Source: a virus
Length of the DNA stretch: 64,000 bases
Virus record (IMG/VR): IMGVR_UViG_3300032242_002802
Coordinates: 4,075 to 68,074 of that record
Direction: 5' to 3' (one strand)
Shown here in pieces: positions 1,529-34,632 of the stretch. The notes under the pieces were generated by a model. It made no database searches. It was not told the origin of the DNA and worked only from the letters and a program-made list of their open reading frames with translations. How positions within the stretch are numbered: the first letter of the stretch is position 1; every line of letters begins with the position of its first letter. The translations under genes and the position numbers were made by a program.

Positions 1529-3402
1529 TAGAATACTTCAAAGTCTATTTGTTTTCTGTCTAAATCAATGGCTTTAACCATTACTTTAATTTCATCACCT
1601 AATCTTATTGAACCTCCCATTTTAGGAAATACAATATAATTATCTGCATCAATTGTGTAGTTATTGTTATATCTAACCATACCTTCACATTTACTATCAA
1701 TAAGTTCAACATACATACCCCACTCTGTTACTCCTGATACAATACCTTCAAATACTTGTCCAATTTTATCTTCTAAGTATTCTATTTGTTTGTATTTAAT
1801 TGAGTCTCTTTGTGCTTTTGCTGCTAAAATTTCTCTTTCAGAACACCATTTGGCCATATCTTCAATTTTATTAGGACTTCCAACAGACTTTTTATTTAAG
1901 TAATCAAATAAAACTCTATGAGTTATTAAATCTGGATATCTTCTGATTGGTGAAGTAAAGTGAGAATAGTGAGTAAATCCTAATCCATAGTGTCCAGAGT
2001 TTATAATTGTATAAGTAGCTTTAGACATACATCTTGTGATTAAAGTTTCAATCATATTCTCTTCTGGTTTACCTTTAATATCTCCAACCAATTGATTAAT
2101 TGATTTTTTAAGATTTGCTGGTTCACCTTCAACTTCTAAAGTATAACCAAAGTTTTTACAGATTAAAGAAAGAGCTTGTAACTTTTCAATGTTAGGAGTA
2201 TCATGTACTCTATAAACATTTGGATATTTTGCATCTGATAATTCTTTAGCAACTAATTTATTTGCAAGTAACATATATTCTTCAATAAGTTTATTTGCAT
2301 CTTTTTGAGTTTTGAAATAAACACCAGTTGGTTTCTTTGTAATTGGATCCAATTGAAATCTTACTTCAATTCCACCCATTTCAATAGAACCATCTGATAT
2401 TCTTTGTTTTCTCATTTTCTTAGCAGTTGTATCTAATAAAAGTATTTCAGTTTTGAAATCTCCATCTTTACCTTCAATTATTTCTTGTGCTTCTTCATAA
2501 GAGTATCTTCTATCTGAATGTATAACAGTTTTTCCAAACCATTTATTCAGAACTTTTCCTTCTTTATCTAAAGTAACTACAACTGAGAAACAAAGTTTAT
2601 CTTCATTAGGTCTTAATGAACATACTCCATTACTTAATCTTTCAGGTAACATTGGTACACATCTATCAACTAAGTAAACAGATGTTGCTCTACTAATTGC
2701 TTCATCATCTAAATCAGTTCCTTCTTTAACATAGTGAGATACATCAGCAATATGAATACCAACTTCAATAGTATCATTATCTAAAATGTTTACTGAAAGA
2801 GCATCATCAAAATCTTTAGCATCAACAGGGTCAATAGTAAAGGTTGTGATGTCTCTCATATCTCTTCTTTTTTCAATTTCTTCTTCTGATATTTCAAAAG
2901 GTATTAATTCTGCATCAGCTTCAACCATTAGAGGGAAACTATTAGGTAATCCATATTCATACATAATTGAGTTCATTTCTGTGTTGTTGTCTCCAGATTC
3001 TCCTAAAATTTCAATGATTTTACCTTTAGGGGATTTGGAACCAGGTTCCCAGCTTGAGAACTCAACCAAAACTTTTTGGTCATTCTTAGCATTGTGTTCA
3101 CCTTTAATATAAAAATCTACTGGAATTTTTTGACTGTCTGGTATTACAAAGGTTAGGTCTTTGTTTAAGTGTACTTTACCAACAAATTGTGTACGGAATC
3201 TTTCTAATACTTCTATTACTTCCGCTTCTACTTTATTATTCTTGATAATAATTTTGACTTTAACTTTATCTGAGTTAAGTGCATTTAGTGTATTTTTTTT
3301 ATAGATAAAAATACTTTTGTTCTCTATTGTAATGGATGCATTTCCACTATTTGAGAAATCTATAGTACCATCATAGATACTATCTTCTTTTAATTTATTC
3401 AT
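1528..3402 (-). CDS. rnr: Ribonuclease R (RNB family)
   Basis: TIDPVDAKDFDDALS catalytic motif, HFTSPIRRYPDL, N-terminal cold-shock domains and C-terminal S1 domain. Confidence 0.95.
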   Translation of the reverse strand: MNKLKEDSIYDGTIDFSNSGNASITIENKSIFIYKKNTLNALNSDKVKVKIIIKNNKVEAEVIEVLERFRTQFVGKVHLNKDLTFVIPDSQKIPVDFYIKGEHNAKNDQKVLVEFSSWEPGSKSPKGKIIEILGESGDNNTEMNSIMYEYGLPNSFPLMVEADAELIPFEISEEEIEKRRDMRDITTFTIDPVDAKDFDDALSVNILDNDTIEVGIHIADVSHYVKEGTDLDDEAISRATSVYLVDRCVPMLPERLSNGVCSLRPNEDKLCFSVVVTLDKEGKVLNKWFGKTVIHSDRRYSYEEAQEIIEGKDGDFKTEILLLDTTAKKMRKQRISDGSIEMGGIEVRFQLDPITKKPTGVYFKTQKDANKLIEEYMLLANKLVAKELSDAKYPNVYRVHDTPNIEKLQALSLICKNFGYTLEVEGEPANLKKSINQLVGDIKGKPEENMIETLITRCMSKATYTIINSGHYGLGFTHYSHFTSPIRRYPDLITHRVLFDYLNKKSVGSPNKIEDMAKWCSEREILAAKAQRDSIKYKQIEYLEDKIGQVFEGIVSGVTEWGMYVELIDSKCEGMVRYNNNYTIDADNYIVFPKMGGSIRLGDEIKVMVKAIDLDRKQIDFEVF

Positions 3403-29063: not shown

Positions 29064-29597
29064 ATGAATAAAAGAATAGTAAACAACAAAAGAAAACACA
29101 AAATAAATGATGATATTAAGTCATTTGAAGTTAGGTTAATTGTTACAGGTGCTGCACCTCAAGTAATGAAAACCAAAGATGCTCTCAAACTTGCTGATGA
29201 TGAGGGTAAGGATCTTATTTTAATTAATGAGAATCAAGAACCACCTATTGCAAAGATTGAGGATTATGGTAAATTTCTTTATAACATTGAAAAGATGTTA
29301 AAAGAACAAAAGAAAAATGCTGTAAAGTCAGAGTTAAAAGAAATAAAATTATCTTGTGAGATTTCAGACCATGACTTAGAAATTAAGGCTAAGAAAGGTA
29401 AAGAGTTTCTACAAGATGGTGATAAAGTAAAATGTGTAATTCAATTAAAAGGAAGACAAAAGGGTAATCCAGATAGAGGACAATTAGTAATGTTAAAATT
29501 TGCTACAATTCTTGAAGAGTTTGGAACTCCTGAAAATGTTCCAAAATTAGAGACCAGTAAATGGTTAATGATATTAAAACCAAAAAAGAAGAACTAA
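29064..29597 (+). CDS. infC: Translation initiation factor IF-3
   Basis: KINDDI..EVRLI, DLILI…PPIAKIEDYGKFLY, LKEIKL…HDLEIK…FLQDGDKVK…KGRQ. Confidence 0.95.
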   Translation: MNKRIVNNKRKHKINDDIKSFEVRLIVTGAAPQVMKTKDALKLADDEGKDLILINENQEPPIAKIEDYGKFLYNIEKMLKEQKKNAVKSELKEIKLSCEISDHDLEIKAKKGKEFLQDGDKVKCVIQLKGRQKGNPDRGQLVMLKFATILEEFGTPENVPKLETSKWLMILKPKKKN

Positions 29598-29608
29598 TGT
29601 TCTTCTTT

Positions 29609-29968
29609 TTATTCTTCATAATTTTCTATTTCAGATATTAAATCATCTAATGGACTATCACCTTGCCAAAAGAATAATCTCATTACATCTTCACCATTAT
29701 TACTTATTATTTCATTAATGGCCATACACCATTCAGAGGCAGAACCTTCTTTTATTATATTTCCTTGTTTTACTTTTATAATACTACCATTTATTGACAC
29801 TATTTCACTATCATTAAAACTTGATAATATAATCTCAGTTAGTTTTTCTATATCTGATTCTTTTGGTTCCCATATACTGACATATTTTAAATCTAAGTTT
29901 AATTTAGAATTTTCTATTTCACTACCATTAACATCAAAACTTTCTGTAATTTTCTTTAAGTGTTTCAT
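29609..29968 (-). CDS. Hypothetical protein, CTS-like N-terminus
   Basis: MKHLKKITES. Confidence 0.7.
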   Translation of the reverse strand: MKHLKKITESFDVNGSEIENSKLNLDLKYVSIWEPKESDIEKLTEIILSSFNDSEIVSINGSIIKVKQGNIIKEGSASEWCMAINEIISNNGEDVMRLFFWQGDSPLDDLISEIENYEE

Positions 29969-30012
29969 AATATTACTTATTTTTATAATGTATATATTAA
30001 TTTTTTTATCTA

Positions 30013-30040
30013 AAACTTTTTACTCATGGCTAAATATAAT
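30013..30040 (+). promoter_or_regulatory. AAAC-N18-TATAAT promoter (representative of a class before replication genes)
   Basis: Same 17-18 nt spacing before Dam, the clamp, UvsW, primase, M42 and others. Confidence 0.6.
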
Positions 30041-30044
30041 CTCT

Positions 30045-30176
30045 ATGACAAAAGAAGAAAAAAAACTTAGAATAGAGTCATTAAAGATACAGGCAGTACA
30101 ACTAAAAAAAGATGTTGAATACTACAATGCAATGCAAACTGCATTGAAGCTTGTACTTAATGGGTCTTATGTTTAA
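30045..30176 (+). CDS. PolB C-terminal subunit, segment 1 (fingers helix and motif B up to the Tyr)
   Basis: MTKEEKK…YNAMQTALKLVLNGSY(V)*, the QxAxKxxxNxxY of motif B. Confidence 0.85.
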   Translation: MTKEEKKLRIESLKIQAVQLKKDVEYYNAMQTALKLVLNGSYV

Positions 30177-30210
30177 CCCCCACTACAGATGTGGTGGGGG
30201 TGAAATTAAC
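30171..30210 (+). other. 40-nt hairpin insertion interrupting PolB motif B
   Basis: GTTTAACCCCCACTACAGATGTGGTGGGGGTGAAATTAAC; 11-bp stem 30176-30186/30191-30201; removal joins TAT to GGT (NGSY|GAF) in frame. Confidence 0.8.
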
Positions 30211-31536
30211 GGTGCATTTGCAACAGCCTACTTCATATTATTTAATAATCATGTAGCAGGTACAATTACTGCCCAAGGTAGAGACCTTACCAAAACAATG
30301 GATAGAGTAAATCAAGATTATTGGTATAACCAATGGCAAAATGATTATGAATTACACACTAAACTTGGAATAAGAGATATTACACCTATTGATAAAAGTG
30401 AACCTGTTAGTATTTATGCAGATACTGACTCATTGTTTGTATCATTTAAACCTGCAATTGATCACTGTACTTGGGAAAACTTAGTATTTGATGAATTAGA
30501 TTTCATCAGTGAGAGATTCATTATACTATCAAAAGATTTTCCTAAACACAATAATCCTAATTGTGTTGGTATGGCTAAGAATGTTAAAGAGTTGGAAGAG
30601 TTATTAATTAATGATTATGACTTATTAATTTTTGATGGTGAGTTTATTAAAAATAGAGATATAAGTAGAATGATTTCAGAAGGTGTTTTCACATCTGAAA
30701 TTAAATGGAACTGGTCTAAAGAACTTGATTTAATACAAGGTATGGATTCATTTAGATATGGTGGTTATTTCAAGAAATGTTTAGAAGATTATGCTGCATC
30801 ATTTGGTGTTGAGAATAAAGAAGACTTTGAGTTAGAGAAGATTTCTGAATCTATCATAAACATTGCTAAGAAGAAATATATTCAACATATTGTACATGAA
30901 GATGGTATTGATTTTGACCCAATGAGTTATATATTCCCTAAAGGAGTTGAACTTGTAAGGTCATCTACACCATTGTTTGCAAGAGATAAAATTGTAGATA
31001 TTGTAAAATATTTATTCTTAAATCCTGATACATTCAACATTAAAGAGTTACTTAAATTGGTTAAGAATTTAAGAAAAGAGTTTGAATTGGCAGATATTGA
31101 TGACATAGCACAACAATCATCTTGTTCTAATTATGATGCTAAAGTAATTGATGATAAGAACTTACCTTTACAATATGTAAATGGTGCTCACTTTGCTGTT
31201 AAGGCAGCAGCTTATCATAATTATTTATTACACAATGATAAGGATGCACAACAAAAGTATGAATATCTTAAATCTGGAACAAAGATTAAGTATTATGCTT
31301 GTAAAGATAAATCTATTAATGATTCATTTGCTTATATGAGAGGTTCATTCCCTCATGAGTTTGCTCCTCAGATTGATTATGACCAACAATTTGCTAAGGC
31401 AATATTATCTCCAATCAATTCAATTATTGAACCACTTGGAATGCCTACAATAACAAATAGATTATCAGTTGTGATGGATATTTTTGGTGGTTGGAATACT
31501 ACTAAACCATCAGGTGGAACTAGTTCAGATTTCTAA
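30211..31536 (+). CDS. PolB C-terminal subunit, segment 2 (palm and thumb)
   Basis: GAF…AGTITAQGR, YADTDS motif C, AKKKYI, KGVELVRSSTP, C-terminal VMDIF (similar to a clamp-binding motif); +1 frame relative to segment 1. Confidence 0.9.
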   Translation, partial: GAFATAYFILFNNHVAGTITAQGRDLTKTMDRVNQDYWYNQWQNDYELHTKLGIRDITPIDKSEPVSIYADTDSLFVSFKPAIDHCTWENLVFDELDFISERFIILSKDFPKHNNPNCVGMAKNVKELEELLINDYDLLIFDGEFIKNRDISRMISEGVFTSEIKWNWSKELDLIQGMDSFRYGGYFKKCLEDYAASFGVENKEDFELEKISESIINIAKKKYIQHIVHEDGIDFDPMSYIFPKGVELVRSSTPLFARDKIVDIVKYLFLNPDTFNIKELLKLVKNLRKEFELADIDDIAQQSSCSNYDAKVIDDKNLPLQYVNGAHFAVKAAAYHNYLLHNDKDAQQKYEYLKSGTKIKYYACKDKSINDSFAYMRGSFPHEFAPQIDYDQQFAKAILSPINSIIEPLGMPTITNRLSVVMDIFGGWNTTKPSGGTSSDF

Positions 31537-31829
31537 TGGATGATAGATATATTGAAACTTTTTTAGCAGGTAAATCTGATTTAATTAAATTAGATGTATA
31601 TAATATATTAGATGATTTTATAGATGTTGATATTAATATTTTTAACCTTTATATGTTAGTAAAGAAAAAAATAAAATTTTCTTATAAATTAATTGGAATG
31701 ACTATGTTTGGTAAAAAGTACATAAATGCTTTTTTAATTGGACATCATCTAATTAGTATTACATTTGATTATTATGATTTTATTGAATTTCAAAGAAATA
31801 TTAAAATTGAAAAAATCCTCTCAATTTGA
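31536..31829 (+). CDS. Hypothetical protein
   Basis: C-terminal QRNIKIEKIL. Confidence 0.65.
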   Translation: MDDRYIETFLAGKSDLIKLDVYNILDDFIDVDINIFNLYMLVKKKIKFSYKLIGMTMFGKKYINAFLIGHHLISITFDYYDFIEFQRNIKIEKILSI

Positions 31830-34530: not shown

Positions 34531-34632
34531 AATATTCATTTTTTCTTTTATATATAAAATCATGAAAATGAATAAAATACAAAAAACCCACCAAACAATT
34601 TGGTGGGTTTAATTTTTATTCTAAATAATTTA

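Follow-up and report, generated by a model that had tools for sequence, protein, structure and literature searches.

A 64,000-nt stretch of viral DNA (bases 4075–68074 of the 68-kb contig of IMG/VR record IMGVR_UViG_3300032242_002802, rated 12% complete and of ∼27% GC; hereafter the window) contains a family-B DNA polymerase (PolB) gene, polB-C, whose motif B is interrupted by 40 bases holding a stop codon and a GC-rich hairpin. The interpretation favoured here, with some reserve, is that these bases form the coding gap of a homing-endonuclease-linked cassette and would be decoded by translational bypassing resembling that of the phage T4 gene 60/MobA element, to which the cassette would not be homologous. 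This interpretation draws on relatives of the phage, in which gaps occur in three length classes between flanks under selection, matched codons bracket the gap at five of six junctions, an endonuclease gene is linked to the gap, and no other polymerase has been found. An earlier note, made from this DNA without database searches, had proposed that the insert is skipped, naming ribosome hopping (with T4 gene 60 as the known precedent) beside excision from RNA or DNA; the comparison of relatives, by the same five lines of evidence, argues for that proposal and adds the link to a mobile endonuclease cassette, which the note had lacked.

The gap and its hairpin

The open reading frame (ORF) MTKEEKKLRIESLKIQAVQLKKDVEYYNAMQTALKLVLNGSYV (MTKEEK...KLVLNGSYV), opened by the ATG at 30045, is closed by TAA at 30174–30176, and a second frame (GAFATAYF...TAQGR...YADTDS; Pfam DNA_pol_B match, E 5.5e-12) runs to 31536. 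Excision of exactly 30171–30210 (40 nt), with a boundary that slides by 1–2 nt, rebuilds PolB motif B as KLVLNGSY/GAF (the slash marks the gap), and the stop-plus-hairpin insert is present as the earlier note had described it. The locus is composed of the following features:

30045..30170, + strand: 5' coding segment of polB-C, 42 codons (MTKEEK...ALKLVLNGSY), with the proposed take-off codon TAT at 30168–30170.
30171..30210, + strand: 40-nt coding gap, consisting of GTT, the stop TAA (30174–30176), the hairpin, the A/U-rich spacer GAAATT and a last codon AAC (30208–30210), the proposed landing codon.
30176..30201, + strand: GC-rich hairpin, ACCCCCACTAC / AGAT loop / GTGGTGGGGGT, 11 pairs including one G.U.
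30211..31536, + strand: 3' coding segment of polB-C, 441 codons and a stop, encoding the thumb, the YADTDS motif and what remains of motif B (Pfam DNA_pol_B).
29598..30044, no strand assigned: variable region separating the IF3 gene from polB-C, holding a 119-aa ORF of no family (29609–29968, minus strand); the site of an HNH-type endonuclease gene in relatives.

The 11-bp stem with its AGAT loop and single G.U pair was borne out, as was its GC-rich composition in an AT-rich genome (GC of ∼0.46 in the gap vs 0.28 in the window), and outward pairing is possible between GUUU at 30171–30174 and AAAU at 30203–30206. The 81-nt context of the gap folds at −28 kcal/mol (z = −3.0; 1 of 200 shuffles equally stable) and the 40-nt gap alone at −21.8 kcal/mol, while none of 500 random 40-mers from the window reaches even −16.8. 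The gap sequence occurs a single time in the window, the chance expectation being 0, and its hairpin is the sole one of CCCC...GGGG type in the 64 kb. A single further strong hairpin was detected in the window: a perfect 12-bp stem at 34584–34610 (AAACCCACCAAA/TTTGGTGGGTTT), which lies between convergent ORFs and is terminator-like.

Misassembly, which the earlier note had considered, is ruled out by recurrence: comparable inserts of differing sequence interrupt the same motif in contigs of many separate assemblies, and identical gaps are found repeatedly in separate assemblies, which excludes an assembly error. For the window this check rests on the assemblies of relatives, the DNA run compared (X2) having no contig over 30136–30202.

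A two-gene polymerase under purifying selection

The 3' segment of polB-C is 92% identical to that of the closest relative (L003; loci of relatives carry L numbers and their genomes G numbers) and 58–82% identical to those of dozens of others. Across 325 pairs of gap-bearing relatives, differences in the 5' segment fall on the first, second and third codon positions in the numbers 1894/1406/4044, and this excess of third-position change indicates that the short segment before the gap is still coding; both exons flanking the gap are under purifying selection. An exonuclease/motif-A half of PolB was not found on the window's contig, itself 12% complete. In two near-complete relatives (483 kb and 465 kb; 98% complete), that half is encoded by a gene of ∼500–530 codons located ∼100 kb away, and the gapped gene is the sole source of the remaining polymerase domains. 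Near-complete relatives contain neither PolA nor DnaE, nor a second PolB copy such as the intact one elsewhere in the genome that the earlier note had allowed for; the polymerase is therefore a PolB made from two genes, of which the interrupted one, encoding palm, fingers and thumb, is no spare copy.

Gaps of the same build in relatives

Relatives were collected by a scan of viral contigs (59 loci) and a scan of metagenome contigs (80 of 203 relatives), and the 122 loci with at least 130 nt upstream gave 90 unique alleles. Loci were dropped where the match did not start from query residue 1 or upstream sequence was absent (L009, L014, L032, L036, L040, L049, L057–L059, L126, L135, L136, L142 and L145), as were the distant L061 and three loci with less than 130 nt upstream (L107, L121, L122); L133 was scored by hand. 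Alignment of PolB for presence or absence of the gap, as suggested in the earlier note, separates 43 uninterrupted from 47 gapped unique alleles, 46 of the latter with a single gap and one (L133) with two.

Gap lengths range from 36 to 49 nt and leave a remainder of 0, 1 or 2 on division by three in 14, 14 and 18 alleles, respectively. A stable hairpin is present in every gap (mean folding energy of −21.5 kcal/mol vs −3.0 for random 40-mers), within a common build of 5–6 nt, a 9–16 bp stem opening with a C-run, a loop of 3–6 nt that is often GAAA, GTAA, GCAA or TTCG (GNRA or UUCG types), and an A/U-rich spacer that leads to a last codon. The stem starts at a constant 5–6 nt past the 5' boundary of the gap, and the 3' boundary lies at a variable 7–18 nt past the stem. 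Pairing is kept while the letters change, with 43 distinct helices among 46 gaps, and in 37 of 46 gaps one of the first two codons is a stop, usually the second and only in a minority the first. Close relatives may have unequal gaps (46 nt in L003 vs 48 in L008; 42 nt in L041 vs 41 in L042). The 3' hairpin arm has 8 G in L041 and 7 G in the near-identical L042/L043, a difference that could be a homopolymer sequencing error or a real length change tolerated in decoding.

Six gap junctions, A/L, L/K, V/L, G/S, S/Y and Y/G (that of the window), lie within ten codons of the motif-B helix, and take-off falls at codon 33–42 of the downstream ORF of the split gene. The double-gapped metagenome contig (L133, 1240–1500) has two hairpin gaps, eight sense codons apart, in one gene, the first of ∼41 nt after LQLAL (CTT>CTA) and the second of ∼37 nt after NGSY (TAT>TAA), followed by an intact downstream ORF of 431 codons.

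Two explanations in which nothing is skipped can be set against this variation. The insert might be translated, through a +1 frameshift at GTT-TAA, as the earlier note had also considered, or through read-through of the stop, leaving ∼13 extra residues in motif B. Both the length of the window's gap (40 nt, 3n+1) and the prfB-like shift site GTT-TAA suit such a shift, but the relatives make it scarcely credible: a fixed shift cannot serve gaps of every frame class, stops lie inside the gaps, so that no single shift or read-through fits all of them, gap length differs between close relatives, and the encoded insert peptides are unconserved. Alternatively, the parts might never be joined, the polymerase being in further pieces (a 43-aa peptide and a protein restarted at or near ATG 30169), or defective gapped alleles being kept by complementation and endonuclease-driven spread. 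In the window, ATG 30169 does share the frame of the downstream ORF, overlapping the stop of the upstream one, and a TAA-ATG occurs in L027; two distant genes already encode the polymerase in this clade, with an apparent further split by split inteins in some relatives. Reinitiation, which had been raised for the window, nevertheless finds no start codon in the closest relative or in many others: L003, L011, L012, L019, L038, L051, L053, L055, L056 and others have an in-frame stop immediately ahead of the point where the frame resumes, and ATG, GTG and TTG are all absent there. The cutting of one motif-B helix at six different residues, the purifying selection on the 5' exon, and the presence of gapped alleles as half of all alleles and in 98%-complete genomes without a second copy also make an unjoined polymerase quite improbable.

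Codons at the proposed take-off and landing sites

At the five junctions other than Y/G, the last gap codon encodes the same amino acid as the codon preceding the gap in 28 of 28 unique gaps (27 by scripted placement, L060 having been re-placed by eye as GGT>GGT). The pairs are directional, with an NNT take-off codon followed by an NNA landing codon in 24 of the 28 (CTT>CTA 14, CTC>CTA 1, GTT>GTA 5, GCT>GCA 3, TCT>TCA 1) and a landing codon not ending in A in four (GCT>GCT 2, GCC>GCT 1, GGT>GGT 1); the first gap of L133 is one further CTT>CTA. In uninterrupted alleles, the same leucine is encoded by TTA 13, TTG 9, CTT 13 and CTA 5 times (n=42), and the same valine by GTA in 18 vs GTT in 14. 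Synonymous and directional pairs would be expected from the re-pairing of one peptidyl-tRNA, with weak wobble at take-off and full pairing at landing; neither RNA splicing nor exact target duplication predicts them.

Applied to the window, bypassing would have the ribosome read codons 1–42 and stall with peptidyl-tRNA(Tyr) on TAT as the hairpin comes up against the A site and the mRNA entrance; TAA would act as a fail-safe stop. The tRNA would then release, the ribosome would slide past the hairpin, and decoding would restart at GGT 30211, yielding a product that reads ...NGSY-GAF... and contains the junction peptide ...LVLNGSYGAFATAY.... A stall at or beside the take-off codon is plausible given the position of the hairpin, because the mRNA entrance is placed at ∼+11/+12 and stem-loops at such a distance hinder A-site tRNA binding, according to the accessible part of PMC7282821. 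At the DNA level, the gap would disrupt the endonuclease target in the conserved motif-B sequence and so shield its carrier from its own nuclease, as for T4 mobA/gene 60.

Several observations weigh against this interpretation, of which the main open problem is the unmatched landing codon in the window's own class. The window pair TAT>AAC is unmatched, as the earlier note had recognised, with two of three bases able to pair, and only 3 of the 18 unique Y/G gaps are matched (TAT>TAC); the remaining last codons are AAC in five (including the window), TAA in four, AAA in two, and AAT, GAC, CAA and AGC in one each. Two-of-three pairing with tRNA-Tyr is possible for most of the unmatched ends and impossible for four. 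In two near-complete relatives, the phage-encoded tRNAs detected (Ile, Met, Gln, Trp, Cys, Arg and Glu) include none for Leu, Val, Ala, Ser or Tyr, so that the argument from weak to strong wobble depends on host tRNAs. The stop is mostly the second codon after the matched codon, with an ordinary sense codon between (in the window, GTT between TAT and TAA). The hairpin core begins at ∼+10 from the first take-off base (5–6 nt after the codon) and leaves the codon outside, a geometry unlike that of T4; only long-stem variants reach the take-off codon, adjoining it in L003, L008 and L077 and, as read by eye, including it in L069 and L076.

A G-run located 4–12 nt before the landing codon (in the window, GGGGGT, 6 nt before AAC) resembles the mini Shine-Dalgarno of T4-type cassettes, which is situated 5–7 nt 5' of the landing codon. 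A Shine-Dalgarno-like 4-mer, however, precedes only 1 of 61 window genes, a further point on the same side, and the G-run is therefore doubtful in that role and not counted as support. This low count, with A-rich sequence before many starts, suggests that the host initiates without Shine-Dalgarno pairing. Upstream of many ORF starts in the window, a motif resembling TTAATATATA recurs beside A-rich sequence; it could be a phage promoter. For the window's class, a hop without a matched landing codon or Shine-Dalgarno help, in which the hairpin alone sets take-off and landing, is offered tentatively, at somewhat less than an even chance; it is the less radical explanation of these junctions and is ranked likelier than the RNA mini-intron considered below.

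Association with a homing endonuclease

In many gap alleles, a gene of 250–390 codons lies head-to-head with polB-C, ∼100 nt upstream. These genes belong to one family (Pfam DUF7487, PHROG 5104, with weaker matches to PHROGs named homing endonuclease) and share an invariant C-terminal DH...N...N block, presumably an HNH (beta-beta-alpha-metal) motif; a PDB sequence search with the endonuclease returned nothing useful. Across the 81 unique alleles with at least 1100 nt upstream, the HNH-type gene is found upstream in 29 of 46 gap alleles vs 0 of 35 uninterrupted ones. In independent pairs the association is in the same direction in ∼3 and the opposite in 0 of 8 (median p 0.25), a comparison that is underpowered. 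A GIY-YIG gene takes the place of the HNH gene in L044, which has a gap, and in L033–L035, which do not. In the gap-bearing L019, which has no intact endonuclease gene, a 62-aa stretch (2883–3068) is 48% identical to the HNH-like endonuclease and is likely a remnant.

The gap state has changed at least 10 times on a 38-row tree and at least 18 times on a 91-allele polymerase tree, compared with a shuffled mean of 30.7. Alleles L012 (Y/G gap) and L013 (A/L gap with endonuclease) are 96–100% identical per 50-nt window downstream of the gap and 8–74% identical in the 5' exon and upstream, and their gaps differ; the same contrast between upstream and downstream identity separates L004, which has no gap, from L007 and L008. 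Downstream near-identity combined with upstream divergence indicates that endonuclease, 5' exon and gap move as one unit, in an exchange ending at the gap. A serine in the motif ESLK, 22–30 residues before take-off, occurs in 34 of 46 gap alleles vs 4 of 42 uninterrupted ones (independent pairs: ∼7 same, 0 opposite of 8, median p 0.016), and may be a nascent-peptide signal or a mere marker of the cassette.

This pattern of exchange also bears on an event at the DNA level, such as the loss by excision of a transposon-derived hairpin (IS200/IS605-like or REP-like) from some members of the population, the former type having been named in the earlier note, or else an artefact of assembly. A GC-rich hairpin in AT-rich DNA, polymorphic among near-identical phages, is what such a remnant would look like, yet the hairpin pattern is found at this site only in G001, G004 and G005, at two sites in G002 and once in the window, in place of the dispersed copies of a mobile hairpin. 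The polymorphism follows the swap of the whole 5' exon with its endonuclease, no clean excision being seen, and the 5' exon of every uninterrupted allele is at most 92% identical to that of any gap allele. Together with the repetition of identical gaps already noted, these observations leave a DNA-level origin very improbable.

In the window, the interval between the IF3 gene and polB-C contains no endonuclease; it has a 390-bp insertion with the unrelated 119-aa ORF, for which no family match and no relative in any locus compared was found. No credible endonuclease remnant was detected there, the best match in the window having an E of 0.007 over 31 aa. The window would thus represent a cassette that has lost its endonuclease, the gap having outlived the nuclease, as it has in several clades of T4 type.

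Contigs from RNA libraries

A further point against bypassing comes from RNA. Twenty sequencing runs hold part of the stretch, and contigs of three RNA runs (X15, X16 and X17) and of the DNA run were compared; all three RNA-library contigs that cross the site are without the gap, and none has it. The X15 contig (1395 nt, depth 31) covers 30082–31445, spanning almost exactly the gene, and skips exactly 30171–30210 at ∼93% identity to the window, and in the short contigs of X16 and X17 (depth 2–4) the interval 30143–30211 is replaced by 26–27 nt encoding an uninterrupted LKLVLNGSY. Excision from RNA, in which the ∼40-nt hairpin segment is cut from the transcript as a tiny intron without group I/II features and the ends are rejoined, would account for this pattern and for the constant 5' boundary, 5–6 nt before the stem. 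The X15 strain also seems nearer to the window (∼93%) than the gap-bearing L003 is (89%), which hints, by parsimony, that its DNA might carry the gap.

All three RNA contigs differ from the window by at least 7%, however, and therefore represent other strains. Gapless DNA alleles are about as common as gapped ones (43 vs 47 unique), even among near-identical phages (L004 vs L007 and L008), so that three gapless contigs are unremarkable, and DNA can be present in an RNA library. Among gapless DNA alleles, L068 stands close to the window, with 90% identity in nucleotides, as does L070, whose 5' exon resembles that of the window. The 89 nt upstream of the X15 junction are twice as diverged as the rest (12/89 vs 80/1235 differences), as after a cassette exchange, and the placement of X15 among DNA alleles from the listed differences is ambiguous. 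The absence of the gap from the three RNA contigs thus fits gapless strains, and it is also what the spliced junction raised in the earlier note would predict.

Excision from RNA is also difficult to reconcile with the variable 3' boundary, 7–18 nt after the stem, and gives no role to synonymous boundary codons with an NNT>NNA bias. A search of 29500–31700 against Rfam 15 (E ≤ 1) gave only a sub-threshold match to a small RNA elsewhere and no family match at the gap. A group I or II intron was rejected, 40 nt being far below intron size and no curated covariance model matching. For rejoining, RtcB was found in 0 of 5 relatives, and an Rnl2-type ligase is absent from the gap-bearing, 98%-complete G001 and present in a gapless relative. 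We know of no comparable splicing in bacteria or phages. In view of both sides, excision at the RNA level is considered unlikely; in its specific form, a hairpin mini-intron with the stem 5–6 nt from its 5' end, excised and rejoined by some host or phage activity, with the RNA contigs as spliced mRNA, it is slightly more doubtful still. Rnl2-type RNA ligase genes (Pfam PF09414) occur in three of five relatives' genomes (G002, G003 and G005), irrespective of gap state.

Comparison with known recoding and gene-splitting systems

To our knowledge, programmed long-range ribosome bypassing has been demonstrated at the bench for T4 gene 60 alone, and the experimental work on T4 gene 60 and MobA is reportedly that of Huang (1988) and Bonocora (2011). 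In the T4 system, gene 39/mobA/gene 60, a split essential gene takes off at codon 46 and bypasses 50 nt within a MobA (HNH) element; elements of this type combine a stable stem-loop, closed by a UUCG or GNRA loop, with a stop or a hungry codon and with matched codons for which a wobble difference is allowed, as described in the available part of a 2022 preprint (10.1101/2022.08.31.505936, Manning & Atkins). The same text reports repeated recent insertions, frequent loss or swapping of the HNH endonuclease, and protection by the gap of its carrier from its own nuclease; as far as the available text extends, MobA/gene 60 elements are stated to be exclusive to Topo2L, the survey finds homologues, in other Myoviridae, only in topoisomerase genes and calls the cassette unique, and the word ‘polymerase’ does not occur (10.1101/2022.08.31.505936).

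The resemblance of the polB element to this system is extensive: a noncoding gap of tens of nucleotides in an essential, already split replication gene, take-off after ∼33–46 codons of the downstream ORF, a stop near the take-off site in most gaps, and a gap that opens with a stable GC stem-loop (UUCG/GNRA loops) and has an A/U-rich 3' part. At five junctions, the take-off and landing codons of the relatives are synonymous and differ only in the wobble base. An adjacent HNH homing endonuclease, often lost with the gap kept, replacement by a GIY-YIG gene (L044), and repeated recent gains and losses of the element are likewise as in T4. Unlike the T4 element, which occupies the Toprim domain of a topoisomerase, the polB element lies in PolB motif B; it uses six junctions, where T4 has one (±1 codon); its hairpin core starts 5–6 nt past the take-off codon, which in T4 forms part of the 5' arm of the stem-loop; the stop tends to come as the second codon past take-off; a matched landing codon is missing from most of the window's class; the genes of this phage do not use Shine-Dalgarno sequences; and one allele has two gaps, eight codons apart. 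No sequence relation to the gene 60 cassette is seen or expected, no formal alignment having been made. Given the different host gene and geometry, the polB element is no member of the T4 gene 60/MobA family; it probably works like the T4 cassette. The suggestion of the earlier note that the mechanism may be new is therefore probably too strong, the parallel with the T4 cassette making it no novelty in kind.

The byps of Magnusiomyces capitatus mitochondria, bypassed inserts of 27–55 nt present in 81 copies in 12 genes with a spread like that of GC clusters, are a second point of comparison (Lang 2014, Nosek 2015, as cited in the available part of 10.1101/2022.08.31.505936). Gaps of both kinds are short, GC-rich in AT-rich coding DNA, of any frame class, flanked by matched codons and without Shine-Dalgarno help; unlike byps, the polB gap occurs at one site per 0.5-Mb genome and is tied to a homing endonuclease. 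Splitting of T4-like gp43 or nrdA by free-standing homing endonucleases, and ‘fractured genes’ with split inteins, are described in the accessible text of Dassa et al. (2009, PMC2677866). These systems also break essential phage replication genes at conserved motifs by means of selfish endonuclease genes, and relatives of this phage carry intein-like C-fragments at the DTD/S motif; they differ in that function is restored by subunit association or protein splicing, with no skipping of untranslated RNA. In L036, L040, L049 and L057–L059, where the match starts from query residue 73, the gene piece opens with a short ORF ending in ...(I/L)(L/V)VHN, followed by the S of DTDS. These short ORFs resemble split-intein C-fragments, which would be a third way of breaking the polymerase. 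The literature searched yielded no account of a polymerase gap or bypass in phages; the supplementary tables of the 2022 preprint could list cases, and the accessible part of the moraphage paper (PMC12619734) makes no mention of either in the polymerase.

Implications

If bypassing is confirmed, a second, unrelated and more varied bypass family would turn a curiosity into a class. The family comprises 47 distinct alleles with a gap, at six junctions and in one case doubled, and its hosts apparently ignore Shine-Dalgarno sequences; these alleles would serve as natural ‘mutants’ with which to probe the requirements of the hop, including codon match, stop position, hairpin geometry and nascent peptide. 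Homing endonucleases would also prove able to enter an essential enzyme at its most conserved motif by supplying the recoding signal themselves. Excision from RNA, if true, would instead constitute a new intron class in phages. In practical terms, gene callers will label such polymerases broken or truncated.

Adjacent gene

Directly upstream of the polymerase gene, the window encodes a phage IF3 (29064–29597, + strand; Pfam IF3_N and IF3_C). The IF3 gene lies beside polB-C in gapped and uninterrupted relatives alike and has no tie to the gap.

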